Below are positions 3,554 to 32,621 of a stretch of DNA of 64,000 nucleotides, in pieces (the stretch's first letter is position 1; every line of letters starts with the position of its first letter). The translations under genes were made by a program, and so were the position numbers. The stretch spans positions 3,232 through 67,231 of the forward strand of contig PUMJ01000017.1 of NCBI GenBank assembly GCA_003551305.1, read 5' to 3'. The notes under the pieces were generated by a model. That model made no database searches. It was not told the DNA's origin and saw only the letters and a list, made by a program, of their open reading frames with translations. This stretch comes from Candidatus Brocadiaceae bacterium. Its GTDB lineage: Bacteria > Planctomycetota > Brocadiia > SM23-32.

Positions 3554-4534
3554 TCAATCCGCGCCCGCGCCGACCGCTTCGGCAGGCTGTCCGGCGTCCT
3601 GCCTGCGTTCGGCCTGAGGCTCGGCCCCGGTGAGGGCCTCGATGACCTCGCTGCTTCCGTCGATAGCCAGCAACTTACCGGATTTCGCGACCACGCCGCC
3701 CTCTTCGTCAAGGACCACCCGGACGACGCCGAGAAGCTGCCGCCTGTCGGGGTCAATGGCGTGGGGATTCCCGCCGGTCTGGGCGATAAGCACGCCGTTG
3801 ACGTTTCTGGCGGGGTCTATGTGGCTGTGAGAGTGGCCGCCCACAATCACGTCCACTTCGCCGAACCGGGCGGCCAGCAGGAGGTCGGCCCCCAGGCCCA
3901 CGTGCGTCAGCAGCACAAAGAGGTTGTGTTCCTCGGCGAGGTGCAGGTGGTCTTCGACGGCCTGCGCGGGGCTCGTCAGTCCAATGCCCTCCCGCTGGCC
4001 GTAGCCCCCTCCCGTCAGGCCCAGCACGGCGACCGTCCAGCCTTCGGCGGTCTCCATGATAGTGTAGGGCTCCGGCGGGTCCAGTTTGTCGGTGCTCACC
4101 TCCACGTTGGCCCCGAGCAGGGGGAACTCGGCCAGGCGCAGACTGTCGCGCGTGATGGTGCCGTGGTAGGCGATTTCGTGGTTGCCGAGCGTGGCGGCGT
4201 CGTATCCGACCTGGTTCATCGTCTCGATCATGAACCGGGAGCGTTCACGGTAGAACTCCAGGTCATCCGTCGGCCAGCGGTGCCGATGCCGCACGAAGAT
4301 GTCCCCCGCATCGAGCAGCAGCACGTTGGGGTAGTTCTCCCGGAAATGCGCGACGACTTCCTCGAAGTCCTCACGGTGATTGAAGTCGAAGTGCAGGTCG
4401 TTGGTGTGCAGTATGACGATCTCGGTGTGCGCCTCCGGCGCATCGGATGTGGCGCGAACTGCCGAGGGCGCCGCCGTCAGCAAAAAACAGAACAGGATGC
4501 CAACGACCGCCAGGCATCTCTTGTGAAACCGCAT
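3554..4534 (-). CDS. Secreted calcineurin-like metallophosphoesterase (UshA/YfkN N-domain-like)
   Basis: ATG at 4534 preceded by GGAGGT. Signal peptide; LHTNDLHFDF, LLLDAGDIF and LGNHE motifs. No C-terminal 5'-nucleotidase domain. Confidence 0.6.
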   Translation of the reverse strand: MRFHKRCLAVVGILFCFLLTAAPSAVRATSDAPEAHTEIVILHTNDLHFDFNHREDFEEVVAHFRENYPNVLLLDAGDIFVRHRHRWPTDDLEFYRERSRFMIETMNQVGYDAATLGNHEIAYHGTITRDSLRLAEFPLLGANVEVSTDKLDPPEPYTIMETAEGWTVAVLGLTGGGYGQREGIGLTSPAQAVEDHLHLAEEHNLFVLLTHVGLGADLLLAARFGEVDVIVGGHSHSHIDPARNVNGVLIAQTGGNPHAIDPDRRQLLGVVRVVLDEEGGVVAKSGKLLAIDGSSEVIEALTGAEPQAERRQDAGQPAEAVGAGAD

Positions 4535-4649
4535 ACCTCTACCTCCGCACAACAGGATACTCGTCCGCGCGTGGCGCTCCTCCGGGGGGCATGGTAACGG
4601 CCGGCCAAGGCGGGGGCAAGAAACACGCCGCCGCCCCGGGCTCCCCTAT

Positions 4650-6002
4650 TCAACGGTTCTCTGCCTTCTCAGCGCCTTCCAGGCTCGCCCGTTCCGGCCC
4701 GGGGTCTGTGGCCGCCGCCTCGCGGTAGAGGGCAGCGGTGGCCCGGGCGGCCTTGCCGGCGGCAAAGCGGACCCGGGCGGTCCGGCGGGCCGCGCGGCTC
4801 AGGCGCTCGGTCTCCTGCCGGTTGTCGCGCAGGCGGGCCAGCGTCCGGGCCAGGGCTTGCGGATCGTCGGGCGGCACGAGGACGCCGGCGCCGCTGGTGC
4901 GCACCAGTTCGTCGAGGCAGGGTCTGCGCGGCGCCACCAGGGGCAGGCCGGCCTCCAGCGCCTCCAGCCACGCCATGGCCGTGGGCTCGTGCTGGCGGGA
5001 GGGGACGCAGAAAACATCGCAACCCCTCAGGAAGGCGGAGCGCGCCGCGGCGTCCGGATTGTCCAGCAGCTCGAGTCTGTCGCCGAGCCCCCGGTCGGTG
5101 AGCAGGCGGCGGCAGCTTTTCCAGTAGCCGCTGTAGTGGTGCGTCAACTGCCCGCCAACCGCCAGCACCGCGCGGAGGGCTCCGGGGGGTTCCTCCGAGG
5201 CCAGCCGGCAGAAGGCCTCACAGAGCAGGTCAAGTCCCTTTCGCGGGATAATGCGGGAGAAGAAGGCGATGCGGAAACTCCCGTCGGGCCGGGATGCTGT
5301 GCCCTCGGCGCGTCCGTCCAGCGGCAGGCCGGGGGGGACGATGTGAATCCGCTCGCGCGGCACGTCCAGGAACGTCGCCATCGTGTCGGCATAGCCGGGG
5401 AAGGAAGCGACGAAAGTATCCACGCTCCGGGCGTGCTCTCGCATGAGCGCCTGTGCCCGGCCCCGGTGAGGTTCGGGCAGGCGTCGGACGAAATCGTCCT
5501 CCCCCTGCAGGTTGCAGACAACCGGCACGTCGAGGCGGCTGCGCAGCCCGGGCAGGATACCGCTCAGCAGGGAGTTGGAGAGGTTCACCACGTCCCAGGG
5601 GCCGTTGCCGGCCAGGTAGTCCGTCAGCTTCTCCAGCTCCTTGCGCTGGCGGCCGTCCGGGCCGCGCAGCACTGAGACGGTCATCTCGCCCAGTTCTTCC
5701 GGCCGGGTCTCGACACCGAGACGCGACACGGCCCGCAGCAGCAGGGGCGCGTCGAGCAAGGCATCCAGGGAGCGCGGAGTGCGCCGGAACAGGCTCAGGC
5801 GGTGCTGCAGATAAACGTTGATAGCGCCGTAGAAGACGCGGTGGGGGCCGGCGACGTGCCCGTCGGCACGGAGCGGGGTGTAGAGGGGGAAGACGACGGC
5901 GTCGCAGCCGGCCTCGCGCAGGGCCGCGCAGATGCGCACGTCACGGGCGCAGGCACCGCAATAGCTGCCGGCCGCCCCGGCGGCAATGTAGGCTATCCTC
6001 AT
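4650..6002 (-). CDS. Glycosyltransferase family 4
   Basis: GT-B fold and GT4-like C-terminal E-x7-E region (HEPTAMAWLEALEAGLPLV). ATG at 6002 preceded by GGAGGT; overlaps the upstream stop (ATGA). Confidence 0.7.
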   Translation of the reverse strand: MRIAYIAAGAAGSYCGACARDVRICAALREAGCDAVVFPLYTPLRADGHVAGPHRVFYGAINVYLQHRLSLFRRTPRSLDALLDAPLLLRAVSRLGVETRPEELGEMTVSVLRGPDGRQRKELEKLTDYLAGNGPWDVVNLSNSLLSGILPGLRSRLDVPVVCNLQGEDDFVRRLPEPHRGRAQALMREHARSVDTFVASFPGYADTMATFLDVPRERIHIVPPGLPLDGRAEGTASRPDGSFRIAFFSRIIPRKGLDLLCEAFCRLASEEPPGALRAVLAVGGQLTHHYSGYWKSCRRLLTDRGLGDRLELLDNPDAAARSAFLRGCDVFCVPSRQHEPTAMAWLEALEAGLPLVAPRRPCLDELVRTSGAGVLVPPDDPQALARTLARLRDNRQETERLSRAARRTARVRFAAGKAARATAALYREAAATDPGPERASLEGAEKAENR

Positions 6003-7999
6003 CCGGTTACCTCCTCCGGCTTGAAGGCGAGAGCGCCGGTGGGGCACGCCTCGGTGCAACGGGCCGTTGCACGGGTGAGCCCCTCTGAAAGCGGGCGGTC
6101 AAAGGGCACCCCTACGCGCGTGCCGAAGCCCCGGTTGCGGAACGCCATGCCCAGCTCCTCGTCCTCGGCGGCCGAGATGCGGACGCACAGCCCGCACGAG
6201 ATGCACTTGCCCGATTCGTAAACCAGTTCCGGGTGCCGGTCGTCGCGTTCGAACCCCCTCGACTCGCCGTCCAGGCGGTGCAGGTCGGCGCCGTACTCGG
6301 TGCCGTAGATGCGCAGTTTGCAGTTGTCGCGGGCGCGGCAATCGCAGTTCAGGCAGCGCCGGGCCTCTTGGCGCGCCGCTTCGGCGCACAGCCCCGGCCG
6401 CACTTCGCGGAAGTCCCCGCGGCGGCTCTCGGCGGGCAGTTTCTGTGGTTCCGCCCGGGGGGTTTCCGGGTAGCCGCGGCAGAGCTGCTCGAGCACCGCC
6501 GGCTCCACCCGCCCCATGCGCACGCAGAGCAGGTGTCGCTCGCCGACCACGGGCTCGCCCCGCAGGTACTGGTCCACGGACGCGGCGACCCCCACGGCGC
6601 CGGCGACGGCCCGAACCGACCACGTGGCCCCGAGGGTGACCTCACCGGCCGCGAAGACGTCCGGGGCGCCCCGGCAGCGCCCAGCATCGTCCACGCTCAG
6701 CGCACCTTCCTCGACCTCGAGCCCCCAGCGGGCCGGCCCTCGCACGTCCACCCGGCGGGACCCGGCGGCTATCACGCACTCCCCCACCAGGGTCATCTCC
6801 CCTCCGGGGCGGCGCACGGCGCACTCCACGGCGCCATCGTCCCGCTGCCGAAGACTTACCAGTTCGGCGTCTGTCTCAAAGGTCACCCCCTCTTCGGCGG
6901 CGTCCTGTGCGCCGGGCTGTCGCGTGAGGCGGGCCCGGGAGAGGCCACTCAGCAGCGTCACCGGCTGCGCGCCGAGACGAACGGCGGACCGCGCGGCGGC
7001 CAGCGCCTCCTGGCCGTCCCCCACCACGACGGCGCCCCCGGCCATGTCGGTGCGTCGGCCGGTGGCCACCTCCTCCAGGAATCGCAACGCCGGGATGGCC
7101 GCCTGCGCGCCCGGGCATCCGGGGGGGACGTCGGCCTGCGCGCCTGTTGCCAGCAGCACGGCGTCGTGACGGGCGCGCAGCTCTTCCAGCGTTACCTCCC
7201 GGCCCAGGGCGGTGTTGAGGTGGAACTCGGCTCCCATGCGGCGGATGACCTCCACCTCGTGCTCCAGCGCGTCGCGGGGCAACGCGTAGGCCGGCACGGC
7301 GTACCTGAACATGCCGCCCGGCTGCGGCCTGGCTTCGTAGAGGGCGCATGCGTGGCCCATGCTGAGCAGGGTATAGGCGGCGGAGAGCCCCGCCGGGCCG
7401 GCCCCGACTATGGCGACCCGGCGGCCCGTGGGCTCGGGGCGCTCGGGCAGCCACGCGGCTCCCTCCTGTTGCTCGCGGTCCGGCACGTGGCGCTTCATGG
7501 CGCAGATGGCGACGGGTTCGTCACGCTGCCCGCGGCGGCACGCGCGTTCGCAGTAGGCGGGGCAGATTCGCCCGAGGGCGCCCGGCAGGGGGATGCGGCG
7601 GCGGATGAGCCGCGCGGCGGCCTCGGGCCGTCCGGCCGCCACGTGGCGCAGGAAGCCCGGGATGTCCAGGCGGGCGGGGCAGGCCAGCGTGCAGGAAGCC
7701 TCGCAGTCGCCCGGGTGGTCGGAGAACAGCAACTCGAGCGCCATCCTGCGGGCGGCGCGGATTTCCGGGCTGTCCGTGGTGACCTCCATGCCGTCCTCGA
7801 CCCGAGCAACGCAGGAGGGCACCAGTCCGGGGCGGTCCCGGACGGCCACCACGCAGAGAAAGCATGAGCCGACCGGTTCGACCTCGTCCCTGTGACAGAG
7901 GGTGGGGATGTCGCGGCCCAGCCGGCGAGCGGCCTCCAGGATGGTGGTCCCTGCCGGCACGCTGAGGCGCTCACCGTCTATGGTTATCGTAAACGGCAT
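5999..7999 (-). CDS. Fe-S flavoprotein: N-terminal 2Fe-2S ferredoxin, GltD/NfnB-like NAD(P)H-FAD oxidoreductase core, C-terminal 4Fe-4S clusters
   Basis: Starts MPFTITIDGERL (ATG at 7999). CHRDEVEPVGSCFLC resembles the NuoG-N 2Fe-2S; CEASCTLACPARLDIP resembles the GltD 4Fe-4S; VAIVGAGPAGLSAAYTL is a dinucleotide-binding motif; C-terminal CISCGLC...CTEACPTGA cluster. The longer 8278 start in the ORF track overlaps the upstream gene and is rejected. Confidence 0.7.
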   Translation of the reverse strand: MPFTITIDGERLSVPAGTTILEAARRLGRDIPTLCHRDEVEPVGSCFLCVVAVRDRPGLVPSCVARVEDGMEVTTDSPEIRAARRMALELLFSDHPGDCEASCTLACPARLDIPGFLRHVAAGRPEAAARLIRRRIPLPGALGRICPAYCERACRRGQRDEPVAICAMKRHVPDREQQEGAAWLPERPEPTGRRVAIVGAGPAGLSAAYTLLSMGHACALYEARPQPGGMFRYAVPAYALPRDALEHEVEVIRRMGAEFHLNTALGREVTLEELRARHDAVLLATGAQADVPPGCPGAQAAIPALRFLEEVATGRRTDMAGGAVVVGDGQEALAAARSAVRLGAQPVTLLSGLSRARLTRQPGAQDAAEEGVTFETDAELVSLRQRDDGAVECAVRRPGGEMTLVGECVIAAGSRRVDVRGPARWGLEVEEGALSVDDAGRCRGAPDVFAAGEVTLGATWSVRAVAGAVGVAASVDQYLRGEPVVGERHLLCVRMGRVEPAVLEQLCRGYPETPRAEPQKLPAESRRGDFREVRPGLCAEAARQEARRCLNCDCRARDNCKLRIYGTEYGADLHRLDGESRGFERDDRHPELVYESGKCISCGLCVRISAAEDEELGMAFRNRGFGTRVGVPFDRPLSEGLTRATARCTEACPTGALAFKPEEVTG

Positions 8000-8121
8000 A
8001 TGTGGTGTCTCACCGAACTCTTGTGTTGCGTTCTCGCGGGACGCTTTTTCCCTGCGAATCGGTGTCTGCTGCGGGGCTGCGCCTCGCTGCGGCGGCGGTC
8101 CTTTTCGCTTGCTCCATCGGC

Positions 8122-10530
8122 TCAGTCCTTGCGCAGGATGATGGCGTCCCGTGGGCATGCGTCCCTGCAACTGCCGCAGTGGACGCAGGTGTCCTGGTCT
8201 ATCTCGTGTTTCTCGTAGGGGCGGGCCTCGATGACGTCCGCCGGGCAGGCCTGGGCGCAGACCGTGCAGCCGTTGCACTCATCGGTCACCTCGTAGCGTA
8301 TCAGCGCCAGGCAGAGCCCGGCGGGGCAGCGGCCCTCGACATGGGCCTCGAACTCCTCGCGGAAGTAGCGCAGCGTGGTCAGCACGGGGTTCGGGGCGCT
8401 CTGGCCGAGGGCGCACAGCGTGGTGCCCTTGATGCGGTTGGCCAACTGCTCCAGCAACTCTATGTCCTCCGGCTTGCCGTCGCCCTCGCAGAGGCGCTCC
8501 AGTATCTCCCGCATCCGCCGGGTGCCGACGCGGCAGAAGGTGCACTTGCCGCAGGACTCGTTCTGGGTGAACTCCAGGAAGTAGCGGGCGATGTCCACCA
8601 TGCAGGTGTCTTTGTCCATGACGACGAGACCGCCGGAGCCCATCATGGCGCCGTGTTGGGTCAATTCCTCGTAATCAATCTTGACGTCGCGCAGGCTGGC
8701 CGGCAGGCATCCGCCGCTGGGGCCGCCTATCTGCACCGCTTTGAAGATGCGGCCTTCCTGCATGCCGCCGGCGATCTCGTCCACTATCTCGCCGATGCGG
8801 ATGCCCATGGGCACCTCGATGAGGCCGCCGCGCTTGATGCGCCCCACCAGGGCGAAGACCTTCGTGCCTTTGCTCCGCTCGGTGCCGATAGCGGCGAAGG
8901 CCTCCGGCCCGTTACGGAGGATCCATGGGATGTTGGCGAAGGTCTCGACGTTGTTGACGAGGGTCGGCTTGCCCCACAGTCCCCTCTCGGCCGGGTAGGG
9001 TGGGCGGTAGTGCGGCATGCCGCGCCGGCCCTCCAGGCTGGCCAGCAGGGCGGTCTCCTCCCCGCAGACGAACGCACCGGCGCCCTGCATGATGTTGACC
9101 CGGAGGCTGAAGTCGCTGCCCAGTATGTTCTTGCCCAGGTAGCCGCGCTCTTCGGCCTGGCGGATGGCGCGGCGGATGCGGCGCACGGCCAGCGGGTACT
9201 CGGCCCGGATGTAGAGGTGGGCCTCCTGCGCGCCGATGGCGTAGGCCGCGATGGCCAACCCCTCCAGGATGCGGTGGGGGTAGGACTCCATCAACATGCG
9301 GTCCATGAACGCGCCGGGGTCGCCCTCGTCGCCGTTCATCACCACGTACTTGGTATCCTCGTGCCGGGCGCGCACATGTTCCCACTTCTGCCCGGTGGGG
9401 AAGCCGGCCCCGCCGCGGCCGCGCAGGCCGGATTTCTTCACCGCCTCGATCACCTCTTCGGGGGTGCGTTCGACCAGGACCTCGCGCAGGGCGCGGTAGC
9501 CGTCCCAGGCTTCGTAGTCGTCCAGGCTGTCGGGGTCCAGCCGTCCGGCGCCCTCCATGACGAGGTGCTTTTGCCCGGCCAGGAAGGCGTTCGTGGCGGG
9601 GTCCCGGCTGTCGAGGGTGTGGTCGTCGGGCTCGGTCCAGGCCGAATCGCTGGTCAGCAGGTCTTTTGCCCGCAGCAGGGCGGCCTTGCCCCTGGCCAGC
9701 AGGCCGCGGCCGCGCAGGTGGCGCCGGGCGAGGTGACGCGCCACGCCGGGGGTGACGCCGGCATAGCGGAAGCTGTGGCCGTCAACAAGGACCTCCACCA
9801 CCGGCTCCTGGAAGTACATGCCGGCGCAGGCCGCGCCCCGCACGTGCGCCGCCGCACCCAGCCGCTGCGCCTCCTCCAGCAGGACGGCACGCACCCGGTC
9901 GCTGCCGCTGGCGATACACGCCGAGTCCAGGCCGAGCCGTATCTCGGTCAACTCGCCGTCCTCCTGCCGGCCGCCCGGCCGGCCGGGCGGCTCCTCGTCG
10001 GCGTCCCGGCCGCCGTACGTCTGCAGGAAGTGCTCAAGCATCCGCGGGGCGGTGTCCCGGGTCAGGTAGCCGTAGAAGCGTTCCCCGATCTTCGCCACCG
10101 GCGCCAGGGAGCAGCAGCCCAGGCACGGAACTTCTTCGATGGTCCAGCGTCCCTCCTCGTCGGTGTCCCTGTTGTCGGGGATGTCCAGGTGGCGCATCAG
10201 GGACTCGGTGATGGCGTCCGCCCCCGCCACGTGGCAGGGGGTGCCCACGCAGACGCTGACGATGTGATCCCCGACGGGCCGGCGGCGGAACTGGGAGTAG
10301 AAGGTGGCGATGCCCTCGACCTGCGCCGGCTGCAGCTCGGTGCGCTCGCAGACGCGCTCCAGGGCGGCCTGCGGCAGGTAGCGAAAACGCTCCTGGATGG
10401 CCTGCAGGATGGGGATGGCGGCCCCCCGGTGGCGGCCGTGGCGCTCGATGATCTGATCAACCGCGTCCAGGTCCACGGCCTGCTCGGCGCCGCCGGTCTG
10501 CCGGGCGCTCTGTTCGGTCACCTCTGTCAT
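8122..10530 (-). CDS. Fused NuoE-like (2Fe-2S thioredoxin-like) and NuoF-like (FMN/NADH, 4Fe-4S) subunit with a C-terminal 2x[4Fe-4S] ferredoxin domain (HoxF/HydB-like)
   Basis: N-terminal CVGTPCH...CLGCC is NuoE-type. GGAGFPTGQKW and NGDEGDPGAF are NuoF FMN/NADH motifs; ESCGKCTFCRVG is the NuoF cluster. C-terminal CNGCTVCAQACP and CVHCGSCRDACP. Confidence 0.8.
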   Translation of the reverse strand: MTEVTEQSARQTGGAEQAVDLDAVDQIIERHGRHRGAAIPILQAIQERFRYLPQAALERVCERTELQPAQVEGIATFYSQFRRRPVGDHIVSVCVGTPCHVAGADAITESLMRHLDIPDNRDTDEEGRWTIEEVPCLGCCSLAPVAKIGERFYGYLTRDTAPRMLEHFLQTYGGRDADEEPPGRPGGRQEDGELTEIRLGLDSACIASGSDRVRAVLLEEAQRLGAAAHVRGAACAGMYFQEPVVEVLVDGHSFRYAGVTPGVARHLARRHLRGRGLLARGKAALLRAKDLLTSDSAWTEPDDHTLDSRDPATNAFLAGQKHLVMEGAGRLDPDSLDDYEAWDGYRALREVLVERTPEEVIEAVKKSGLRGRGGAGFPTGQKWEHVRARHEDTKYVVMNGDEGDPGAFMDRMLMESYPHRILEGLAIAAYAIGAQEAHLYIRAEYPLAVRRIRRAIRQAEERGYLGKNILGSDFSLRVNIMQGAGAFVCGEETALLASLEGRRGMPHYRPPYPAERGLWGKPTLVNNVETFANIPWILRNGPEAFAAIGTERSKGTKVFALVGRIKRGGLIEVPMGIRIGEIVDEIAGGMQEGRIFKAVQIGGPSGGCLPASLRDVKIDYEELTQHGAMMGSGGLVVMDKDTCMVDIARYFLEFTQNESCGKCTFCRVGTRRMREILERLCEGDGKPEDIELLEQLANRIKGTTLCALGQSAPNPVLTTLRYFREEFEAHVEGRCPAGLCLALIRYEVTDECNGCTVCAQACPADVIEARPYEKHEIDQDTCVHCGSCRDACPRDAIILRKD

Positions 10531-10564
10531 ATTGCCTTCCGTCTTTGTCCGTTATAGCATGTCG

Positions 10565-12286: not shown

Positions 12287-12348
12287 CGTGCGGTCTTTGG
12301 GCGGGTGGCGGCGCGCCGGGCCGTCGCCGGTGGGGGAAGTCTGCTTGC

Positions 12349-12798
12349 TCACGGCTTCCCTCCCGGTATCTCGTCGGTAATCTCCCGCTGGGCGCGCCGG
12401 TCGCGCTCGGCCGGGCAGGACATATAGCACCGCGCGCAGGCCACGCAGTAGAGGTGGTTGATGACGTACTCTTCGTGCTCACGAGGGCCGGCGTGGGCCA
12501 GCAGGGCGACGGCCAGCACCAGGCCGAGCCAGCCGCCCAACGCCGCGGAGCCCCGGGTGAGGTTGCGCTCGGCCCGGCGAGCGTCCTGGTAAAGCTCCTG
12601 CTCGGTGCGGTCGGCGTTCCAGAAGGCTTCGGTGTCCTGGGTGAGGCCGCGGGCCCCGAGCACGGACTCCTCCCGCCAGATCTCGCGGGCGAGGCGCACG
12701 TCGCGGTGCGCGCGCGCCACGAACGGACCGGCCCCGAGCCCGAGGGCGGCCCCCAGAAGCGGCAGCACCAGTAAGGACAGCCATAGCAGTCTGCGCAT
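12349..12798 (-). CDS. Small membrane protein with a single CxxCxxCxxxCP 4Fe-4S ferredoxin motif
   Basis: Two hydrophobic segments, then CVACARCYMSCP. ATG at 12798 overlaps the upstream stop (TGATG). Confidence 0.45.
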   Translation of the reverse strand: MRRLLWLSLLVLPLLGAALGLGAGPFVARAHRDVRLAREIWREESVLGARGLTQDTEAFWNADRTEQELYQDARRAERNLTRGSAALGGWLGLVLAVALLAHAGPREHEEYVINHLYCVACARCYMSCPAERDRRAQREITDEIPGGKP

Positions 12799-13664: not shown

Positions 13665-13788
13665 GTCCTGTGGTCGTCAGAAGTGGGCCGTCGAATGATC
13701 GTTTTCGGTTCGGTTCTCATCCTCGTGCTCGGCGTTCCTCTGCCGTGTGGTGTCCCCGGGGCCGTGGCCCGGGCCGGCAGCGCCCCAG

Positions 13789-14385: not shown

Positions 14386-14403
14386 CCGGTCTCTTCTCCT
14401 CCC

Positions 14404-16524: not shown

Positions 16525-16525
16525 C

Positions 16526-17941
16526 TCAGTCACCTCCCTCCGTTGGCAGCGCCACGCAGACCATCTCTTCCATGTTCCGCAGGATGAGGCGCTCCCCCAC
16601 CAGGGCCAGCGGCGCCCAGGGTTCGTCGGGCTCCAGGACGTTGACCCTGTCCAGTTCATTGTAGCCGCCCGGGACAGCCTCCACCATGAACAGGTCGCCG
16701 GTGCGGTCGTCCAGGGCCAGCAGCTTGCCGTCGGCCAGCAGGAACGGCCCCAGCCCGAAGCGGCGCGCGCGGGTGCTGGTCCACAGCACGTTGCCCTCCA
16801 GGTCCATGCAGGCCAGCTCGCCGGACGGGATGACGCCGTAGATGTGGCCGTCGTGGAAGATGGGGGTCTGCTGGTCGGAGCCGAACTCGCGCGGCCCCAG
16901 CCGCCAGACCTCCTCGGGCTCTATCTCGCCGCCGTCGCTGCGCAGCCGCAGCATCATCGCGCCGCTGTTGTAGCCGCCGGACAGGAACACGTGCTCTTCG
17001 TCGATCACGACCGGCGTGGGGATGTTGGCGATGCGGATGCGCCAGCCGGGGTATTCCCAGAGCAGCCGGCCGTCCTCGGCGTCCACCCCCACCACGCTCT
17101 CGGTGGTGCAGTAGATGTACTGGCGGCCGGCGGCGTGGTCCATGGCCGCGACGCTGGAGTGCGTCATGCCCCGGCCGCCGGGGTTCGGCGTCTCCCAGAG
17201 CACCTCGCCGGTGGCCAGCTCCACCTTCATCATCAGCGGCTCGCCGCCGGGCGCGAGCACCACCGCGTCTCCGTCCAGCAGCGGGCACTGGCCGGTGTAC
17301 CAGTCGGGTATGACGGTGCCGAACTCCTCGACCATGTCCATGCGCCAGACGAGCTCTCCGGTCTCGGCCTCCAGGCAGTGCACGTGCCCCAGGGCGCCGA
17401 GGGTCACCACGTATTCGTCGGTGACGGCGGGTATGGTGCGACTGAAACCGTGGTTTCGGCGTATGCGGACGGAGTAGCTGTAGCGCCATATCTCACGGCC
17501 GTCGGCCAGTGAGAGGCGGCGCACGACCTCGGAGTCGTTCTCCGGGTCGTAGTCGAGCAGGAACACGCTGCCGTCGTTGACCGCCGGGCCGGCGTAGCCC
17601 TCCCCGACCTCGACGCTCCACAGCTTGCTCAGTCCCCCCTGCGGCCAGGAAGCGGCCAGCGAGGGGGCGTCGCGGACGACGTTGGTGCGGTCGGCGCCGC
17701 GGAACTGCACCCACCGGCCCGGCAACTCGGCCGCCCGGCCGGGGCCGGGGGTCAGGGTGCCCTCGCGCCAGGAGGGAAGCTGCGCCTCCGCCAGCTCGAA
17801 CATCGGCTGCAGGTCCAGCGGCACACGGGTCTCGACCGTCAGCCCCAGGCTCCAGCGCATCCAAGCCACCACCGTCAGGGCGCACACCAGCCCCGCGGCG
17901 AGCGATACGGCCAGCGCCGGTCGGCGTCTAAAGAAGCCCAT
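16526..17941 (-). CDS. PQQ-like beta-propeller repeat protein with N-terminal TM anchor
   Basis: ATG at 17941; RRRPALAVSLAAGLVCALTVVAW anchor; blades such as ADGREIWRY, ETGELVWRM, TGEVLWE, EDGRLLWEY. Confidence 0.6.
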   Translation of the reverse strand: MGFFRRRPALAVSLAAGLVCALTVVAWMRWSLGLTVETRVPLDLQPMFELAEAQLPSWREGTLTPGPGRAAELPGRWVQFRGADRTNVVRDAPSLAASWPQGGLSKLWSVEVGEGYAGPAVNDGSVFLLDYDPENDSEVVRRLSLADGREIWRYSYSVRIRRNHGFSRTIPAVTDEYVVTLGALGHVHCLEAETGELVWRMDMVEEFGTVIPDWYTGQCPLLDGDAVVLAPGGEPLMMKVELATGEVLWETPNPGGRGMTHSSVAAMDHAAGRQYIYCTTESVVGVDAEDGRLLWEYPGWRIRIANIPTPVVIDEEHVFLSGGYNSGAMMLRLRSDGGEIEPEEVWRLGPREFGSDQQTPIFHDGHIYGVIPSGELACMDLEGNVLWTSTRARRFGLGPFLLADGKLLALDDRTGDLFMVEAVPGGYNELDRVNVLEPDEPWAPLALVGERLILRNMEEMVCVALPTEGGD

Positions 17942-18084
17942 GGCGCCTCGCGGGACCGAAAGGGGAACGGAAACTCCGGAACCGCCCGTCCTGGCGCGCA
18001 GGGCGGCCCTCAACCGGTCGCATGTCGAACCTCGGATACAATGTCTTCTCATTCAACATATGGTACTCTCTGCCTCTTCAGGCG

Positions 18085-19251
18085 TCATTCCCGGCCCGCC
18101 TCCTCCGGGACGAAACAGTGGACCTCCCCGTCCTGGCTGCTGATGACGAGCATGCCGCCGGCCACGGCGGGCGAGGCGAGGACCGGCGAGCCGAGCGGTC
18201 GGCGCCAGAGCTGACGGCCCTCCCCGAGGGACAGCGCGTACAGGCTGCCGTCGTCGCTGCCCACGTAAACGACGTCTCCGGCGATGACCGGCGATGAGTC
18301 AATGCTGCCGCGGGCGGTGAACTTCCACAGTTCCTCTCCTCTCTCGGCGTCGAAGCAGCGCACCGTGCGGTCCCGCCCGGCCACGACGACCCGCCCGGCC
18401 GAGACGGCGGGCGAGGCGTAGAGCGCGTCCCCCTCCGAAACGTCGGCCTGCCAGACCGTAGCACCGTCCTGTGCCCGTATGCGGAACAGCAGCCCCTCGA
18501 AGGTGGCCACGTAGAGGGAGCCGTCCCGGTAAACCGGAGTCGCCGCGGTGTAGCCGCCGACGTCGGCCTCGACGCGCTGCTCGCCGGTCTCCAGATCAAT
18601 GACGCGCAATATGCCGTCGCAGCCCGCTATGGCGACCGAGCCGTCGAAAACCGCCGGGCTGCAGTGGACCGGCTGGTCGGTCTCCAGCTTCCAGATCAGT
18701 TCGCCGTCGGCAGCACTCAGGCAGTAGAGGAAGCCGTCGTAACTGCCGAACAACACCCTGCCGTCCACCACGATGGGCGAGGAGATGATCCTCTCGTCAG
18801 CCTCGAACCGCCAGAGTTCCTCGCCTGTGGCGGCGTTGAGGGCGTAGAAGATGCCGCGTTCGTCGCCGACGAACACCCTGCCGTCACGGGCGGCGGGCGC
18901 GCCGGGCACGCGGCCGCGCGTCTCGAACAGCCACAGGCGCGCCCCTTTGTCCCGCCGCAGCGCCAGCAGCCCTTCCGAGGTGCCCACGAAGACGTAGCGC
19001 CCCACCAGGGCCGCCGTGGACTCGACACCCGCGCCGGCTTCATGAGTCCAGCGGGCCGCGAGCGGTGCGGACAGCGGCGCGCGCGCCAGGCCCGTCTGGG
19101 CCGGGTCGCCGCGGAACGAGGGCCAGTCTGCCCCCTGCCGCGCCGCGAGGACGGCCGGCGCCAGGCATGCCACCGATATCAAGACCGTTACGACTCTCCG
19201 CAAACGCCGGCCCCCTCGAAAATGCACGTTACCAGCTTTCCATACTATCAT
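18085..19251 (-). CDS. PQQ-like beta-propeller repeat protein (secreted)
   Basis: ATG at 19251 immediately after the upstream stop. Signal peptide; blades ATGEELWRF, ADGELIWKL, QDGATVWQ, ERGEELWKF, GEGRQLWRR. Confidence 0.6.
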   Translation of the reverse strand: MIVWKAGNVHFRGGRRLRRVVTVLISVACLAPAVLAARQGADWPSFRGDPAQTGLARAPLSAPLAARWTHEAGAGVESTAALVGRYVFVGTSEGLLALRRDKGARLWLFETRGRVPGAPAARDGRVFVGDERGIFYALNAATGEELWRFEADERIISSPIVVDGRVLFGSYDGFLYCLSAADGELIWKLETDQPVHCSPAVFDGSVAIAGCDGILRVIDLETGEQRVEADVGGYTAATPVYRDGSLYVATFEGLLFRIRAQDGATVWQADVSEGDALYASPAVSAGRVVVAGRDRTVRCFDAERGEELWKFTARGSIDSSPVIAGDVVYVGSDDGSLYALSLGEGRQLWRRPLGSPVLASPAVAGGMLVISSQDGEVHCFVPEEAGRE

Positions 19252-19252
19252 T

Positions 19253-22200
19253 TTACTCTGAACGCAGCGCCGACAAAAGCTCGCGCCGCACGGAACCGGC
19301 CGCGGCGGCCGCACACGAGACCAGGCCGACGGCGAAACACGCCGCCAGAACCGCCACGAGCGAAGCCCACCGGACGTCCGCCACGTCGGAGGCCAGGTGC
19401 GGAGCGACGGCCACCAGGGCGCTCACCGAGCCTAACGCCAGCCCCAGTGTCAGCAGCAGGGCGTTCTCCAGCGTCACGGCGGCCACGATGCGCCGGCGCG
19501 GGATGCCGACGGCCAGCATCAGGGCGAACTCCGCGCGCCGCTCGACCACGCCGCGCAACAGCACCGTCACCAGCCCCAGCGTGCCGAGCAACAGCCCCAG
19601 CCCGCCCAGCGTCTGAAAGGTGCCCAGGTAGGTGTTCTGCACGCCGGCGAAACGCGCCAGCAGCTCGCCGGTCTCCAGCACCTCGACGCCCATCTCGCCC
19701 AGCCCGTTGCGCAACGCGGCCGCCACGGCTTCGGTCTCGCCCGGCGGCGTCTCCACCAGGAAGTAGCGGTAGCCCGATTCGCTGCCGAAGTGCCGCACGA
19801 AGTGACGTTCCGCCACGAGCGCCTCGCTCTGGAAGATAGTGTTGGCCAGCAGGCCGACCAGTTCCATGCGGGCTTCTTCGCCGTGGGCGGCCGGCGCGGT
19901 CAGCAAGTCCCCCACGCCCTTGTGGAGGATCCAGCGCGCGCTGGCGGCGTCCGCGAAGGCGGGCAGGGCGCCCCCGGCCGCGTCGGGGTCGCGTCGAAGC
20001 AGGCGCCAGGGCCGGCCGGCCTCCTCGTCTCCCAGGCTCACGTGCTCGGCGAAGCCGAAGCCGCCGCGCTCGACCACCTGCTCCGGCACGCCCAGCACGC
20101 GCGGCACCGAGGGCCTTTGCACGTTCAGACAGCTTATGTCCTCCCCCTCGCTCATGCGGAACTGGTAGATTTCGGCCCGGGCGATCGCCTCCGACTCCTC
20201 CTCCGTCAGCCCGACCCGCTCGCGGCCCTGGGGGGTGGACAGGTCGGCGTGGATGCCGACGCTGCTGCGCGCCACCAGGGTAAAGCCGCCCGCGCCGGAG
20301 GCCCGGTCACGCACGTCCACGCGGCGCATGTCGCGCCGGTTGACAGCCACGGAGACGATCATGAAGCTGGCGGCCGCCAGCAGACCGGCGCTCAGCAGGC
20401 TGCGCACGCGGTTGCGCCGGGCGCCGCGCCAGGCCAGCCTCAGCAGGCCGGGCGCCGCGTGCCGGCCCGGGCCGCCCGGCCGCAGGGCGAGCGCCGTCAC
20501 AGCCAGCGCGCCCACCAGCAGCAATGCCCCGATGCCGAAGAAAGCGCCCGTCGTCGGCACCACCGGCAGCAGCGTGCTCAGCACCAGCAGGGCGGCCGCA
20601 CCGAGCCCGGCCAGACCCGCCACCCACGCCGCCCGCAAGCGGCGCGCCGGCCGCGTTGCCGGGGGCGCATCGCGCTCCGCCTGCCAGCCCGCCAGCAGCC
20701 GTGCGGCCGACGACCTGCGCAGCAGACGGATGCCCCACCAGATGGCGAGGGCCGCCACCGCCAGGCCGCCCAGGAAGCCGATGAACAGGCTCAGTGGCGT
20801 AACGTGCAGCTCGAACGGCATCTGCCCGGCCGCCGGCTCCCACCAGGTGTGGAGACCCAGGATGATAAGGCGCGCGTAGCCGACCCCGGCCGGCGCCCCG
20901 ACGGCGCCCCCCGCCAGGGCCACCAGGCCGGCCTCGGCGGCCAGCGGCGCCGCCGTCCTCCGCCCGGGCAGGCCCACCGCCAGCATGATGCCGAGCTGGC
21001 CGGCGCGCCTCTCGACGTTCAGCCGCAGCATCAGCCCCAGCAGCATCGCGGCCGCCGCCACCAGGAACATGCTCATGGAGAGGAACAGCATCCCGAAGTC
21101 CGTGGAGCCCCGCGCCGCTGCCAGCGCCTGCTGCCGCACGGACCGGAACGCCAGCCCGTGCGCGGCCGGGTCCAGTTCGGCCAGCAGGGCGCGCCGATAG
21201 CGCCCGGCAAAGCCGGCATCAGCCCCTTGCGGCCGGGCCGCCAGCACGGACGTGACCCAGTCCTCCCCGATGCGGGCGGAGCGCCAGATGCCGCGCATCG
21301 CCTCGGGAGCGACGAACGCCTTGGGCGTGGCGCGGTGTTCGTCCCAGTAGTCCTCGTCCCGGGCCCTCACCCGCGAGAGGTCCACGGGGAAGGGCGGGTC
21401 CCACGCGCCGATGGTGTCCACATCGGTGATGCCCTCGAAGAACGGCACGAGGTCAGGGTCCGCCGCCGCCCCCCGCATGGGCACGACGCCGGCCACTTCG
21501 AACGTCATGCTCCCGGTCGTCATAGCGCCGCCGCGGCCGCGCACGTAGTAGGTCATCTCGACGGCGTCCCCGGGCGAGGCGCCCAGGTCATCGGCGGCCC
21601 AGTCGTTCAGCAGGACCTGGTCCGCCCCCAGGTCGGGGGAGGGCGAGCCGTCGGTCAGGACCAGCCCGCCGGCCGCGCGGGCGGCCTCCGGCTCCAGGGC
21701 CGCCACGATGGAGTAAGGGACGGAGCCGTCCTCTGCGCCGACCAGGCGAAGGGTGTTGGCCAGGTAAACGGAGGCCGCACCGGCCGCTATGCCCTCCGCT
21801 TCGGCCGCCGCGCGGGCGGCCCCGGCGGCGCGTGCGGAGAGCACCATGCGGGCGCTCTGCAGGGCCAGGTAGGCGCGGCCTTCCGGTTCTTCCAGGCGCA
21901 GGCCGTAGTCCTCCAGTTGCGCCTGCCGCCGCAGGACCTCTCGCAGGAGGGCGTCCCCGTCAGGCAAAGGGCGGTCGGGCGAAGAGGCGACCAGGAGGGC
22001 GTTGGCGCGGCCGGGCTGTTCCAGTTGCCGGGCCAGCCACTCCCGCTCGACGAAGAGGTTGTGCGGGTGGGGGCGGTCCCCCTGCAGGCTGAACCGGCCC
22101 ATACCCTCCGGGGGCAGCACCTGCCCGACGGTGACCGACAGCGTGCGCAGCGTGCGTGCGCGGCTCTGGTGCGAGAAGACGGTATCCCCCGGCGCCATGC

Positions 22201-22696
22201 CCTCTCGCCCCACGCTGACGAACAGCGTGTCGCCTTCGCGCAGGTCGAGTTCTTCGGCCAGGGCGGCGCTGAGGGCCGCGTTTCGCCCGCTCGGGGCGTC
22301 CCGCGGGCCGCCTTCGCCAAGGTCCCAGAACTCCGGCGGCACTCCCAGCAGGTTCACGCGCGGCGTCGCCCTCTGCTCATCGGCCGTGCGCGCACTGCCC
22401 CCCAGCATCAGCGCGCTGACCGCCCCGGAGAAGGCGTCGTCGAAGCCCGGCTCATCGGCCAGCTCGTCTGCGATCTCGCGGGCCAGTTCAGCCCGGAAGA
22501 AGCCGTCCGTCACCAGCGCGTGCTCGACGCGGCCCAGCCGCTGCAGGGCGAGGTCGCGCAGGCTGCCCTGCACGCTGTCCCCCACCAGCAGCGAACCGAC
22601 CAGCACGGCCACGGCCGTCGCCGTGCCGGCCAGCGCCGCCAGGTTCGAGCGCCGGTAGTAGGCCAGGCTCCGCAGTGTCAGGCGCAGGATGTTCAC
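19253..22696 (-). CDS. ABC transporter permease with two FtsX-like domains (MacB/YbbP-type)
   Basis: 1147 aa. Two sets of 4-TM FtsX modules separated by large periplasmic domains; N-terminal LRSLAYYRRSNLAALAGTATAVAVLVG motif. GTG start. Confidence 0.75.
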   Translation of the reverse strand: MNILRLTLRSLAYYRRSNLAALAGTATAVAVLVGSLLVGDSVQGSLRDLALQRLGRVEHALVTDGFFRAELAREIADELADEPGFDDAFSGAVSALMLGGSARTADEQRATPRVNLLGVPPEFWDLGEGGPRDAPSGRNAALSAALAEELDLREGDTLFVSVGREGMAPGDTVFSHQSRARTLRTLSVTVGQVLPPEGMGRFSLQGDRPHPHNLFVEREWLARQLEQPGRANALLVASSPDRPLPDGDALLREVLRRQAQLEDYGLRLEEPEGRAYLALQSARMVLSARAAGAARAAAEAEGIAAGAASVYLANTLRLVGAEDGSVPYSIVAALEPEAARAAGGLVLTDGSPSPDLGADQVLLNDWAADDLGASPGDAVEMTYYVRGRGGAMTTGSMTFEVAGVVPMRGAAADPDLVPFFEGITDVDTIGAWDPPFPVDLSRVRARDEDYWDEHRATPKAFVAPEAMRGIWRSARIGEDWVTSVLAARPQGADAGFAGRYRRALLAELDPAAHGLAFRSVRQQALAAARGSTDFGMLFLSMSMFLVAAAAMLLGLMLRLNVERRAGQLGIMLAVGLPGRRTAAPLAAEAGLVALAGGAVGAPAGVGYARLIILGLHTWWEPAAGQMPFELHVTPLSLFIGFLGGLAVAALAIWWGIRLLRRSSAARLLAGWQAERDAPPATRPARRLRAAWVAGLAGLGAAALLVLSTLLPVVPTTGAFFGIGALLLVGALAVTALALRPGGPGRHAAPGLLRLAWRGARRNRVRSLLSAGLLAAASFMIVSVAVNRRDMRRVDVRDRASGAGGFTLVARSSVGIHADLSTPQGRERVGLTEEESEAIARAEIYQFRMSEGEDISCLNVQRPSVPRVLGVPEQVVERGGFGFAEHVSLGDEEAGRPWRLLRRDPDAAGGALPAFADAASARWILHKGVGDLLTAPAAHGEEARMELVGLLANTIFQSEALVAERHFVRHFGSESGYRYFLVETPPGETEAVAAALRNGLGEMGVEVLETGELLARFAGVQNTYLGTFQTLGGLGLLLGTLGLVTVLLRGVVERRAEFALMLAVGIPRRRIVAAVTLENALLLTLGLALGSVSALVAVAPHLASDVADVRWASLVAVLAACFAVGLVSCAAAAAGSVRRELLSALRSE

Positions 22697-22826
22697 CTGT
22701 CAGGCTCCATGGGGCGTTCGGTTCATGTTCTTGCTCGCGGCGTCAGGTTGCTCATTTTCCGTTGTTCGTTGCTCGTGGGCGCTCCGGCCTTCCGGGGCCT
22801 CGGGGCCCACTTCCGCCGGGCCCTCC

Positions 22827-23516
22827 TCATGGTTCGCCGTCGTTGCGGGGGTGGAGGGCGCCGTCGCGCAGCTCGTGGACGTCGCCGAACCGCTCGGCCA
22901 GTTCGGGGTCGTGCGTGGCCACCACCAGCATCACGTCCCGCTCGGCGATCATGCCCTCGAACAGGTCGGCCATGCGACGGCCGGTCTCGCTGTCCAGGTT
23001 ACCGGTCGGCTCGTCGGCCAGCAGCAGGACGGGCTCGTTGATCATGGCGCGGGCGGTGGCCACCCTCTGGCGCTCCCCGCCGGAGAGGGCTGCCGGGAAG
23101 TGGTCCATCCTCTCGGCCAGGCCGACGGCTTCCAGCAACTCCTCGCCGCGCGCGAGCGCCGCCCGGCGTTCCTCCGCCCCGGCGCCCAGGGTGGGCAGCA
23201 GCACGTTCTCCAGCGCGGTGCACTGCGGCAGCAGGTGGTGGTCCTGGAAGATGAAGCCTATCTCGCTGTTGCGCAGCCGGGCCAGTTCGCGCTCGTCCAG
23301 GCCGGCCAGGTCCCGGCCGTTCAGCTGCACGTTGCCAGCCGTAGGAGCGTCCAGCGTGCCGATGATGTTCAGCAGCGTGCTCTTGCCGGAGCCCGACGGG
23401 CCGACCACCGCCATGGACTCCCCGGGCCGCAGGGTAAAGCTGACGTCGCGCAGCACCAGCAGCGTTGTCTCGCCCGTGGGATACTCCTTCCGCAGCCCTG
23501 TCAGTTCAAGCGTCAT
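22827..23516 (-). CDS. ABC transporter ATP-binding protein (LolD/MacB ATPase family)
   Basis: Walker A GPSGSGKST, signature LSGGERQRVA, Walker B LLLADEPTGNLD, H-loop ATHD. Confidence 0.85.
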   Translation of the reverse strand: MTLELTGLRKEYPTGETTLLVLRDVSFTLRPGESMAVVGPSGSGKSTLLNIIGTLDAPTAGNVQLNGRDLAGLDERELARLRNSEIGFIFQDHHLLPQCTALENVLLPTLGAGAEERRAALARGEELLEAVGLAERMDHFPAALSGGERQRVATARAMINEPVLLLADEPTGNLDSETGRRMADLFEGMIAERDVMLVVATHDPELAERFGDVHELRDGALHPRNDGEP

Positions 23517-32442: not shown

Positions 32443-32621
32443 GTATGTGACTTCTTTGTAACATGTTACGAGCGCCGTGTTCGCCGCCGTGAACTGGCGG
32501 CACAGTCATTGCGATAACGCCAGACGCGCCAGTTGGCGCGATGGCTGCCGGAAACGGAGCCGCACCGGAGGGTCCGGCCCGGCAGAACAGAAGGATGTCT
32601 CCTGGTGTGAGGTGGACCACA

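Follow-up and report, generated by a model that had tools for sequence, protein, structure and literature searches.

Proteins of the NapH type are an established modular device for transmembrane electron transfer, and Méheust et al. (2021) described NapH-like systems as modular conduits serving mostly unknown reactions, some of them encoded beside propeller enzymes of the pyrroloquinoline quinone (PQQ) type such as ExaA (PMC8238504). NapGH itself is a quinol dehydrogenase, and a NapGH-like quinol dehydrogenase feeds PceA (PMC4585668). In the Bfu family of flavoenzymes, NfnABC oxidizes NADPH and reduces NAD+ and ferredoxin; Bfu/Nfn enzymes are reversible, and the B3 and B4 clusters at the C terminus of BfuB lead to ferredoxin (Li et al., PMC11829005, whose names for the NfnA domains are used here as well). 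A survey of this family counts 17 to 18 uncharacterized clades and predicts membrane-bound Mbh-Bfu and Nuo-Bfu complexes (Schut et al., PMC9304861). Here we describe a gene cluster that joins these two groups, the one mostly without known partners and the other with many uncharacterized clades. It was found as a run of about 20 kb on the minus strand (positions 3554 to 23516) in a 64,000-nucleotide stretch of contig PUMJ01000017.1 from a Candidatus Brocadiaceae bacterium (assembly GCA_003551305.1); this whole stretch is called the window below, and positions are counted from its first nucleotide. The run had been picked out in an initial annotation of the window as a possible envelope-associated system linking electron-transfer proteins to propellers.

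The run is one copy of a strongly conserved cluster with defined borders, present in hundreds of species from many phyla. A scan seeded with the NapH-like protein, with one genome per species, yielded at least 595 confirmed stretches, of which the best 80 loci were analyzed; the window proteins were also run by tblastn against 87 related loci, and all neighbor counts refer to loci with enough flanking sequence. The core comprises, in order, a propeller protein with a transmembrane (TM) anchor (PQQb), an NHL-repeat lipoprotein (NHL), a small cysteine protein with a twin-arginine translocation (Tat) signal (Cys4), a NapG-like ferredoxin, a NapH-like polyferredoxin with a small ferredoxin, a second TM-anchored propeller (PQQtm), a NuoE-NuoF fusion (NuoEF), and a GltD-like flavoprotein, and it is colinear and on a single strand in 90 to 98% of the loci, which come from at least 10 phyla. 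Seen from the NapH-like gene, the same strand carried the NapG-like gene in 74 of 76 loci, the NHL gene in 64 of 69, PQQb in 61 of 64 (there upstream of NHL), the small ferredoxin in 67 of 75, PQQtm in 63 of 64 (between the NapH-like gene and NuoEF), NuoEF in 54 of 56, and the GltD-like gene in 44 of 49. Because the same order recurs in 80 loci and at least 10 phyla, the arrangement lies far beyond chance, and the earlier suggestion that these genes form one unit is borne out by the neighborhoods of the relatives, in which the propellers accompany the Fe-S genes.

Among the best 80 loci were Planctomycetota (metagenome-assembled genomes [MAGs] labeled Brocadiia, Phycisphaerae/Sedimentisphaerales, and Pirellulales), Bacteroidota (the cultured Draconibacterium orientale DSM 25947, Prolixibacteraceae, Mariniphaga, Rikenellaceae, Lentimicrobiaceae, Saprospiraceae, and a Parabacteroides), and members of the Verrucomicrobiota, Lentisphaerales, KSB1, Calditrichota, Armatimonadia, Firestonebacteria, and Aegiribacteria. 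Metagenome contigs of three NapH-like relatives, from two Planctomycetota lineages and candidate division WS1, showed the identical core order, with ATP-binding cassette (ABC) and FtsX genes upstream or downstream of the core and a family 4 glycosyltransferase (GT4) gene trailing in one lineage. Genes interrupting the clusters were unrelated to them (introns, restriction systems, TonB receptors, mobile genes), and the remaining core order was intact despite such foreign insertions. When the inserted genes and 128 flanking open reading frames (ORFs) were searched for additional conserved partners or regulators, no enriched family was found; the commonest flanking family, sulfatase, accounted for 6 of the 128 ORFs, which fell into 94 Pfam families. 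Proteins of outlying length were considered as candidate gene fusions and nearly all rejected as ORF overextension artifacts of high-GC DNA, the only real fusions being that of the NapH-like protein with the small ferredoxin and one tandem PQQtm. The view that no named system fits this combination still holds: a description of the cluster was not found in the full-text literature searched, outside which most subscription journals lie, nor did the examined part of the supplement to Méheust et al. (2021) contain a matching cluster. Source databases name the components generically, as "polyferredoxin," "NosR/NirI family," "BamB," "YncE," "PQQ-binding-like beta-propeller repeat protein," or "NHL repeat-containing protein."

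In the window itself, the gene series runs unbroken from 23516 to 3554, as judged from the ORF listing and from framing by G+C content at third codon positions (GC3; filter span, 3554 to 23552). With a G+C content of approximately 70%, raw ORF lists are noisy, and it is the codon-position filter that isolates a single clean series. Of the initial description, the same-strand run stands while its count of 16 co-directional genes does not, since 15 genes were counted here; the minimal gaps and stop-start overlaps were confirmed, with junction distances of -14 to +143 bp when the best start codons are used, four overlaps of 4 to 14 bp, and gaps of 122 to 143 bp at three junctions. Every domain that had been named for the run was recovered by Pfam. 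Two starts were revised: the GltD-like gene most likely begins at 7999 (MPFTITIDG) rather than at 8278, and PQQb most likely begins at 17941, because this agrees with a 100% identical public protein of 471 amino acids (aa) (P0241, on an NCBI contig). Public proteins 100% identical to the window's NapH-like protein (P0001) and NHL protein (P0121) were likewise available, on short Logan contigs. A scan for promoter and terminator consensus sequences was uninformative in this 70% GC sequence. The remaining genes of the window are unrelated housekeeping genes.

At the cytoplasmic end of the core, the NuoEF/GltD-like module recognized earlier holds and can be refined, by matches in the PDB, to the NfnABC/Stn (Bfu-family) type. 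The NuoEF gene (8122 to 10530, minus strand) encodes the equivalent of a BfuC-BfuB fusion, in which the thioredoxin-fold [2Fe-2S] domain of BfuC (2Fe-2S_thioredx, PF01257; fusion residues 24 to 167, E = 3e-44) precedes the BfuB set of Complex1_51K (PF01512), NADH_4Fe-4S (PF10589), and a C-terminal Fer4 region for two [4Fe-4S] clusters (residues 746 to 797). Its best PDB sequence matches were NfnB (9n5u_B, E = 4e-212), 9bov_B, and Stn B (8oh5_B), followed by HydB, with E values of 1e-173 to 1e-212 for NfnB, StnB, and HydB versus about 1e-111 for NuoF of complex I. The GltD-like Fe-S flavoprotein (5999 to 7999, minus strand; Fer2_4, Fer4_20, and Pyr_redox_2 on ORF 5999 to 8278) best matched 9bov_A, NfnA (9n5u_A), and 8oh5_C, the matches of the pair to NfnA, NfnB, and Stn spanning 1e-110 to 1e-212 overall. 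Only the first 673 to 701 residues of these 963- to 1,178-aa A subunits are covered, and because the alignments to 9n5u_A, 8oh5_C, and 9bov_A all end there, the Fdh/NuoG-like C-terminal domain of NfnA is absent, the N-terminal Fe-S and NfnL/GltD-like FAD domains being present. Most GltD-like orthologues measure 518 to 545 aa, and the window protein and that of one Brocadiia MAG (locus L018, 16845 to 18830) carry about 140 additional, Cys-rich residues at the C terminus. This extra stretch (5999 to 6400 in the window) resembles the region that follows the flavoprotein domain in HydA and NfnA.

Set against NfnABC and StnABC (9n5u, 8oh5, 9bov), the pair is alike in that NuoEF aligns over the full length of NfnB/StnB, with the thioredoxin-like, FMN, and two-[4Fe-4S] domains, in that its NuoE part is the counterpart of the C subunit, and in that the GltD-like protein corresponds to the N-terminal and NfnL-like domains of the A subunit. 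It differs in that C and B are fused and A lacks the Fdh/NuoG-like domain and, in most species, the last Cys-rich stretch as well. Moreover, the genes do not stand alone but are embedded in a membrane and periplasmic set, and the presumed electron partner would be a membrane polyferredoxin instead of a soluble ferredoxin. An arrangement of this kind is not described in the Bfu survey of Schut et al. (PMC9304861).

The NapH-like integral-membrane polyferredoxin (12798 to 13664, minus strand; two Fer4_5 domains, E = 5e-15, and Fer4) had 6,454 database homologues at E ≤ 1e-5, the top 120 of which were 52 to 68% identical to it. It has a signal-like N terminus, a conserved RFPPPDF segment, approximately five hydrophobic segments, and 11 invariant cysteines (C101, C103, C145, C149, C197, C233, C237, C262, C265, C268, and C272) arranged in the motifs GCxCP, FCxxxCP, CRYDP, YCRxxCP, and CxxCxxCxxxCP. 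Application of the positive-inside rule to the consensus predicts that the C-terminal ferredoxin domain and the two CX3CP motifs are cytoplasmic and that the cysteines of GCxCP and CRYDP face the periplasm. The adjacent small ferredoxin, with two TM segments and a CxxCxxCxxxCP motif (12349 to 12801, minus strand; weak Fer4 matches), overlaps the NapH-like gene by 4 bp in the window and is usually the C-terminal part of the NapH-like protein, most homologues being fusions of about 430 aa. Upstream lies the gene for the Tat-exported four-cluster ferredoxin of NapG-like architecture (13789 to 14385, minus strand; Fer4 families), in which R11, R12, F14, and 17 cysteines in four 4-Cys motifs are at least 90% conserved among 74 sequences and whose identity across phyla is 49 to 72%. 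The designation of the two as a NapGH-like pair stands for the architecture only: the NapH/MauN models scored far below their cutoffs (TIGR02163, 30.0 bits versus 213; NF007013, 25.6 versus 234), the best NCBIfam match of the NapH-like protein was a weak one to NosR (30.5 bits versus a cutoff of 1,000), and the NapG-like protein had no match to the NapG/MauM NCBIfam models at E ≤ 1e-3. Among solved structures, no homologue of the NapH-like membrane part was found, and the NapG-like protein matched only generic ferredoxin motifs.

Next to the NapG-like gene lies that of the 94-aa Cys4 protein (14404 to 14688, minus strand), which has a KRREFLRR twin-arginine motif and several cysteines; it had no NCBIfam match, nor a Pfam match in a scan that used the overlapping ORF 14372 to 14803. 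An ORF of 56 to 130 aa was recovered at this position in roughly half of the loci examined (genes of 80 to 84 aa were called there in L001/L002 and L006/L007); it combines the pattern C-x6-C-x2-C-x6-C-x-LP with an RR motif, a hydrophobic stretch, and a basic c-region. In the clade of the window, the pattern reads C-x2-C-x6-C...C-P-(Y/F), the first cysteine having been lost and a C-terminal one gained. That four cysteines are kept despite this rearrangement argues for a putative metal or cluster site in the protein. Other redox cofactors were sought among the cluster proteins: the CxxCH motif of c-type heme is absent from them, apart from one CTLCH within an Fe-S motif, and no FMN_bind or ApbE domain was detected in any of them by Pfam. 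Domains of molybdopterin enzymes, NosZ, RdhA, and amine dehydrogenases were absent from the window cluster by Pfam and also from the 25 most frequent families of the 128 flanking ORFs.

The conduit resembles NapGH, the PceA-adjacent NapGH-like proteins, NosGH/NosR, and MauMN in pairing a Tat-exported four-cluster ferredoxin with a multi-TM Fer4_5 (CX3CP) protein that has a cytoplasmic ferredoxin domain, and modules of this type link periplasmic enzymes to electron pools in the membrane or cytoplasm. It differs from them, beyond the failure of the curated models, in its C-terminal extension of two TM segments and one cluster, in its periplasmic RFPPPDF N terminus, in the absence of a nearby molybdoenzyme, NosZ, reductive dehalogenase, or amine dehydrogenase, and in its coupling to an NAD(P)H flavoenzyme. 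With the flavinylated NapH-like systems of Méheust et al. it shares the PF12801 membrane Fe-S conduit, as seen in the two Fer4_5 domains; those systems are, however, defined by an FMN-binding domain flavinylated by ApbE, which this cluster lacks, a Tat ferredoxin and the Cys4 miniprotein standing in that place and a Bfu-like module being attached. The machinery for N2O reductase (NosR/NosGH, NosDFY, and NosL together with NosZ) likewise sets a periplasmic propeller beside a NapH/NapG-type donor, an ABC transporter, and a lipoprotein, yet no component here is orthologous to a Nos protein, the permease is of the FtsX type, and there is neither a cupredoxin nor a CuZ-type set of histidines. Identity as a nos cluster, already dismissed in the initial annotation, was rejected on this domain evidence, as no Pfam or NCBIfam match to NosZ, NosD, NosF, NosY, or NosL was found and only the weak match to NosR remained.

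On the periplasmic side, the core encodes three propellers. PQQb (16526 to 17941, minus strand; PQQ_2, E = 3e-29 on ORF 16526 to 18052) was modeled with AlphaFold2 at a predicted local distance difference test (pLDDT) score of 89.6 as a helix at residues 7 to 32, corresponding to an N-terminal TM helix, followed by an eight-bladed propeller. A fold search with this model returned BamB and tetrathionate hydrolase (6l8a) as the best PDB matches (E = 1e-17 to 1e-14; identity, 15 to 21%), and no PQQ dehydrogenase was among the top 50. Tetrathionate hydrolase illustrates that a PQQ_2 fold devoid of cofactor is able to be an enzyme acting on sulfur compounds; PQQb differs from both proteins in being anchored by a TM helix of its own and in which polar residues are invariant, and the modeled likeness is one of fold and implies neither association with the BAM complex nor polythionate hydrolysis. 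Public PQQb homologues are 47 to 61% identical across classes, a degree of conservation that is unusual for a scaffold, and the invariant residues, among them H165, R169, C220, H262, S263, S264, Q358, and T360, lie in loops preceding inner strands. Judging from the repeat register, they would be located at the mouth of the channel.

The NHL lipoprotein (15550 to 16524, minus strand; PF01436 on ORF 15550 to 16659) is a six-bladed propeller whose consensus includes a "GC" lipobox; its AlphaFold2 model (pLDDT, 91.8) best matched the NHL domains of TRIM71 and TRIM2, the fold search returning generic NHL domains only and no functional lead. It carries a vicinal Cys pair in the sequence G-C-C-N-P (codons at about 15796 to 15801): F225, G227, C228, C229, N230, and P231 were invariant in 54 sequences, and in 66 sequences derived from the loci their conservation was at least 90%. 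PQQtm (10565 to 12286, minus strand; PQQ_2, E = 8e-33 on ORF 10565 to 12430) has three N-terminal TM-like segments (residues 49 to 67, 123 to 141, and 177 to 195 of the 621-aa ORF) and a Pro-rich linker before the propeller. At locus L060, a Planctomycetaceae MAG, a tandem PQQtm duplication (11270 to 14416) apparently forms a single ORF of 1,048 aa.

Two further PQQ-like paralogues had been noted outside the run, and both are PQQ_2 proteins by Pfam: PQQd (23877 to 25142, plus strand; E = 4e-22), a secreted paralogue 33 to 35% identical to PQQb-type proteins (E = 1e-65), and PQQe (26783 to 27901, minus strand; E = 3e-27 on ORF 26783 to 28033), a BamB-like propeller whose link to the system is uncertain. 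Of the 34 loci of at least 20 kb, 27 have PQQd-like genes, and in Bacteroidota the copies number up to four to five. In Bacteroidota loci, two to five PQQd-type paralogues were seen in tandem upstream of PQQb (L021, L023, L024, L034, L036 to L038, L041, L043 to L047, L053, L058, and L061, among others); the His residues invariant in PQQb are not among the conserved positions of PQQd. The propellers had been taken for BamB-type proteins rather than PQQ dehydrogenases, and the data agree: PQQ_2 scores far exceed those of PF01011, whose matches are partial and weaker, the quinoprotein dehydrogenase model TIGR03075 gave 84, 19, 49, 31, and 29 bits for the five propellers against a cutoff of 480, and the PQQb model folds like BamB. 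The BamB model itself, TIGR03300, stayed below its cutoff of 285 bits for PQQa (209), PQQb (48), PQQtm (79), PQQd (44), and PQQe (80), PQQa being the propeller of the accessory block described below. No pqq biosynthesis genes were present among the annotated ORFs of the window. On this domain evidence, a PQQ-dehydrogenase cluster, which the initial annotation had also argued against, was rejected, all five propellers having failed the dehydrogenase models.

Around the core lies an accessory block, consisting in the window of an ABC ATPase of the LolD/MacB kind (22827 to 23516, minus strand; PF00005, E = 1e-34), a double-FtsX permease of 1,147 aa (19253 to 22696, minus strand; PF02687 in two stretches), the secreted BamB-like eight-bladed propeller PQQa (18085 to 19251, minus strand; PQQ_2, E = 3e-62 on ORF 18085 to 19314), and, beyond the other end of the core, the GT4 (4650 to 6002, minus strand; Glycos_transf_1 and Glyco_transf_4 on ORF 4650 to 6059), whose start overlaps the stop of the GltD-like gene by 4 bp. 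In the loci of at least 20 kb, GT4 was found in 22 of 34, always adjoining PQQa and the ABC gene, PQQa in 23 of 34, and the ABC gene in 16 of 34. The order PQQa-GT4-ABC-FtsX (L022, L026, L032, L035, L057, L069, and L077) behaves as a movable block, upstream of the core in many Planctomycetota and downstream, after GltD, in Bacteroidota; ABC homologues adjoin a double-FtsX permease in related loci on either side. The best NCBIfam match of the ATPase was LolD (245 bits versus a cutoff of 308), and the LolD, YbbA, MacB, and ADOP models all scored below their cutoffs. The permease, with about 10 TM segments (TM-like stretches at residues 20 to 38, 537 to 785, and 1033 to 1131) and two large periplasmic domains, is 33 to 50% identical to its counterparts in L002, L009 to L011, L018, L022, L026, L032, and others. 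With PF00005, two copies of PF02687, and large loops between TM segments, the pair can be placed in the type VII superfamily, at that level only; like MacB, LolCDE, and YbbAP, it combines a LolD-like ATPase with an FtsX permease bearing large periplasmic domains, but here one protein carries both FtsX domains, and the window cluster has no gene for a membrane-fusion protein. The GT4s of the cluster share an N-terminal Y-C-x-N-C-x-R-D motif (YCGACARD in the window; 22 sequences) and a third conserved cysteine, C163; these features are unusual for GT4 and are a possible sign of a metal or redox site.

Two members of the run proposed at the outset did not survive comparison. Neither the PhnD-like Tat lipoprotein (14685 to 15563, minus strand; Phosphonate-bd, PF12974, E = 2e-21 on ORF 14685 to 15719), with its RLTRRQF motif and LVTGC lipobox, nor the secreted 5'-nucleotidase/UshA-like metallophosphoesterase (3554 to 4534, minus strand; Metallophos, PF00149, on ORF 3554 to 4552; only UshA-like NCBIfam matches well below cutoff) had a tblastn match in any of the 87 related loci, and both were rejected as components. 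By this comparison, the former appears to be an insertion specific to the window and the latter a co-directional gene not conserved with the system.

As to function, we hold, with somewhat better than even confidence, that the cluster encodes one envelope-spanning Fe-S redox machine that is free of cytochromes and of flavinylation, a single machine being favored because the genes specify a continuous chain of redox centers and because three tethered propellers are encoded between them. In the cytoplasm, NuoEF and the truncated NfnA-like protein constitute, by homology, an NfnABC/Stn-type module with sites for NAD(H)/FMN and NADP(H)/FAD; it also has the C-terminal domain of two clusters from which ferredoxin receives low-potential electrons in Bfu enzymes. 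The electron partner of this module is likely to be the cytoplasmic cluster domains of the NapH-like protein together with its two-TM, one-cluster extension, not a soluble ferredoxin, and its conserved Cys motifs would then lead electrons across the membrane, as we infer from the NapH/NosH/NosR family, to the Tat-exported four-cluster ferredoxin and the Tat-targeted Cys4 miniprotein. At the periplasmic end, PQQb with its TM anchor, the lipoprotein NHL, and PQQtm with its three TM segments might bind or convert the substrate, with the NHL Cys-Cys pair and a PQQb ring of conserved His, Arg, Cys, and Ser residues as candidate reactive sites. The accessory GT4, the LolD-like ATPase with its double-FtsX permease, and the BamB-like propeller presumably contribute to this process, either by synthesis of an envelope glycoconjugate and its extraction or export or, alternatively, by mechanically driving assembly in the periplasm. 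A more specific proposal, to which we give clearly less than an even chance, is that the cluster represents a widespread and so far unrecognized class of periplasmic oxidoreductases in FCB, PVC, and allied phyla, in which a Bfu-type, possibly bifurcating NAD(P)H flavoenzyme docked directly on a NapH-like polyferredoxin sends low-potential electrons over a heme- and flavin-free Fe-S relay to propeller catalysts that are cofactor-less or based on thiols or metals. Our best guess for the acceptor is a sulfur compound, a disulfide, or a soft metal(loid), a direction in which the vicinal Cys pair, the fold likeness to a polythionate enzyme, and the Cys4 protein point weakly.

Several points weigh against this interpretation. 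Every step beyond domain homology, including physical association of the proteins and electron transfer between them, is inference. With an NfnA-like subunit that lacks the Fdh/NuoG-like domain, bifurcation is not assured, and any cofactor or metal site in the propellers is at most a candidate. The 80 loci are the closest NapH-like relatives, and the conservation figures cover those only, while ABC and GT4 genes lie within 10 kb on either side in about half to two-thirds of the long loci, a proportion partly limited by flank length. The direction of flow is a further point. We favor a flow from NAD(P)H to the periplasm, which would make the system a periplasmic reductase, because characterized NapH-type modules feed periplasmic reductases, because the Fe-S chain appears to be of low potential throughout, and because the propellers are devoid of an oxidase cofactor signature. 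The same machine could nevertheless run inward, with the propellers oxidizing a low-potential periplasmic or extracellular donor and the Bfu-like module reducing NAD(P)+, possibly by confurcation with NADH. The reversibility of Bfu/Nfn enzymes (PMC11829005) would permit this; inward flow was also proposed for flavinylated NapH-like systems beside periplasmic PQQ alcohol dehydrogenases (PMC8238504), and it has been speculated that methanogens use surface propellers of the PQQ_2 type for the uptake of extracellular electrons (PMC10470525). We nonetheless regard inward flow as unlikely, in view of propellers that fail the PQQ-dehydrogenase models and fold like BamB, of the lack of an oxidase cofactor, heme, or flavin domain among those sought, and of the outward delivery seen in the characterized NapGH, NosGH/NosR, and PceA-linked systems.

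Another conceivable role, by analogy with the Nos accessory proteins, is in assembly or maintenance. NosR/NosGH, NosDFY, and NosL serve the CuZ propeller of N2O reductase, and the Fe-S chain and ABC transporter could here similarly, rather than serve catalysis, build a metal or sulfur center in a propeller or keep it reduced; the NapH/NapG-like pair, ABC transporter, lipoprotein, and propellers would all have their counterparts, and the weak NosR match would fit, as would the invariant His and Cys of PQQb and the NHL Cys-Cys pair. This is improbable, though, since NosZ, NosD, NosY, NosL, and cupredoxin domains are absent, the permease is not of the NosY type, the ABC module is not always adjacent to the core, and PQQb has only two invariant histidines, far below the seven ligands of CuZ. 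We rate lower still a respiratory complex acting as an NAD(P)H:quinone oxidoreductase or otherwise linked to quinol, in which the NapH-like protein would provide a quinone site, the Bfu-like module would fill or empty the quinone pool, and the propellers would be scaffolds or unrelated envelope biogenesis factors sharing an operon. NapH proper being part of a quinol dehydrogenase (PMC4585668), the NapH-like protein might indeed exchange electrons with quinones instead of the Bfu-like module, which counts against our interpretation; predictions of membrane-bound Bfu complexes linked to quinones exist (PMC9304861), and PQQa, PQQb, and PQQtm do resemble the scaffold BamB. Yet the linkage of the three core propellers to the NapH-like gene (61 of 64 to 63 of 64) is no looser than that of the Fe-S genes, among which they are interspersed, PQQb is 47 to 61% identical across classes, the NHL Cys-Cys pair is invariant, and a Tat-exported four-cluster ferredoxin would be without a role in a purely quinone-reducing enzyme. 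Finally, adjacency by chance or for regulation only, of genes with independent functions, could draw on the three 122- to 143-bp gaps, which might hold internal promoters, and on the PhnD-like and metallophosphoesterase genes as unrelated passengers; against it stand the order and strand kept in 80 loci and at least 10 phyla, the fusion of the NapH-like protein with the small ferredoxin, and the survival of the remaining order after foreign insertions, so that coincidence is effectively excluded and this explanation retains a very small probability.

Should the redox machine favored here be real, it would end in a new and unprecedented terminus, a conserved trio of membrane-tethered propellers, none of them with a known redox role, and would test whether flavin-based bifurcation can feed a membrane conduit directly, with no soluble ferredoxin in between. 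The cluster occurs in at least several hundred species-level genomes of phyla that are dominant in anoxic sediments, digesters, and polysaccharide-degrading communities. Once known, the identity of its substrate could point to a new sink or source of electrons in the carriers and could give a function to a large share of the many proteins annotated as "PQQ-like/BamB-like" and "NHL repeat" in Planctomycetota and Bacteroidota. If the more specific proposal of an oxidoreductase class is true, these sediment and digester bacteria would have a new way to reduce a substrate abundant in their environment, such as a sulfur species, a disulfide, a metal(loid), or an envelope glycoconjugate.

Elsewhere in the window, a gene for an RtcR-type sigma-54 activator (30741 to 32351, minus strand) is divergent from one encoding a Ro60/TROVE-like vWA_Ro60 protein (32541 to 34181, plus strand). 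In enterobacteria, RtcR controls the rsr-Y RNA-rtcBA operon; at this locus, neither Rfam nor ARAGORN detected a Y-RNA-like or tRNA-like RNA, and rtcB and rtcA were not seen in adjacent positions. Close by, a single chain combines a SpoIIE/PP2C phosphatase with an anti-sigma kinase domain (HATPase_c_2), reminiscent of RsbU and RsbW (28755 to 30212, plus strand), and its gene adjoins one with a Mut7-C RNase domain (28021 to 28596). An ORF of 883 aa whose coding signal is strong (36968 to 39619, plus strand; GC3, 0.90), without a Pfam match at E ≤ 1e-4, follows an AIR-synthase-related gene (AIRS/AIRS_C; 35833 to 36978) with an 11-bp overlap. The window also contains a sulfatase gene (246 to 1844, plus strand) and a gene for a protein with an FGE-sulfatase domain (58495 to 59919, plus strand); sulfatases near the cluster probably reflect the sulfatase-rich lifestyle of these phyla and not a functional link.

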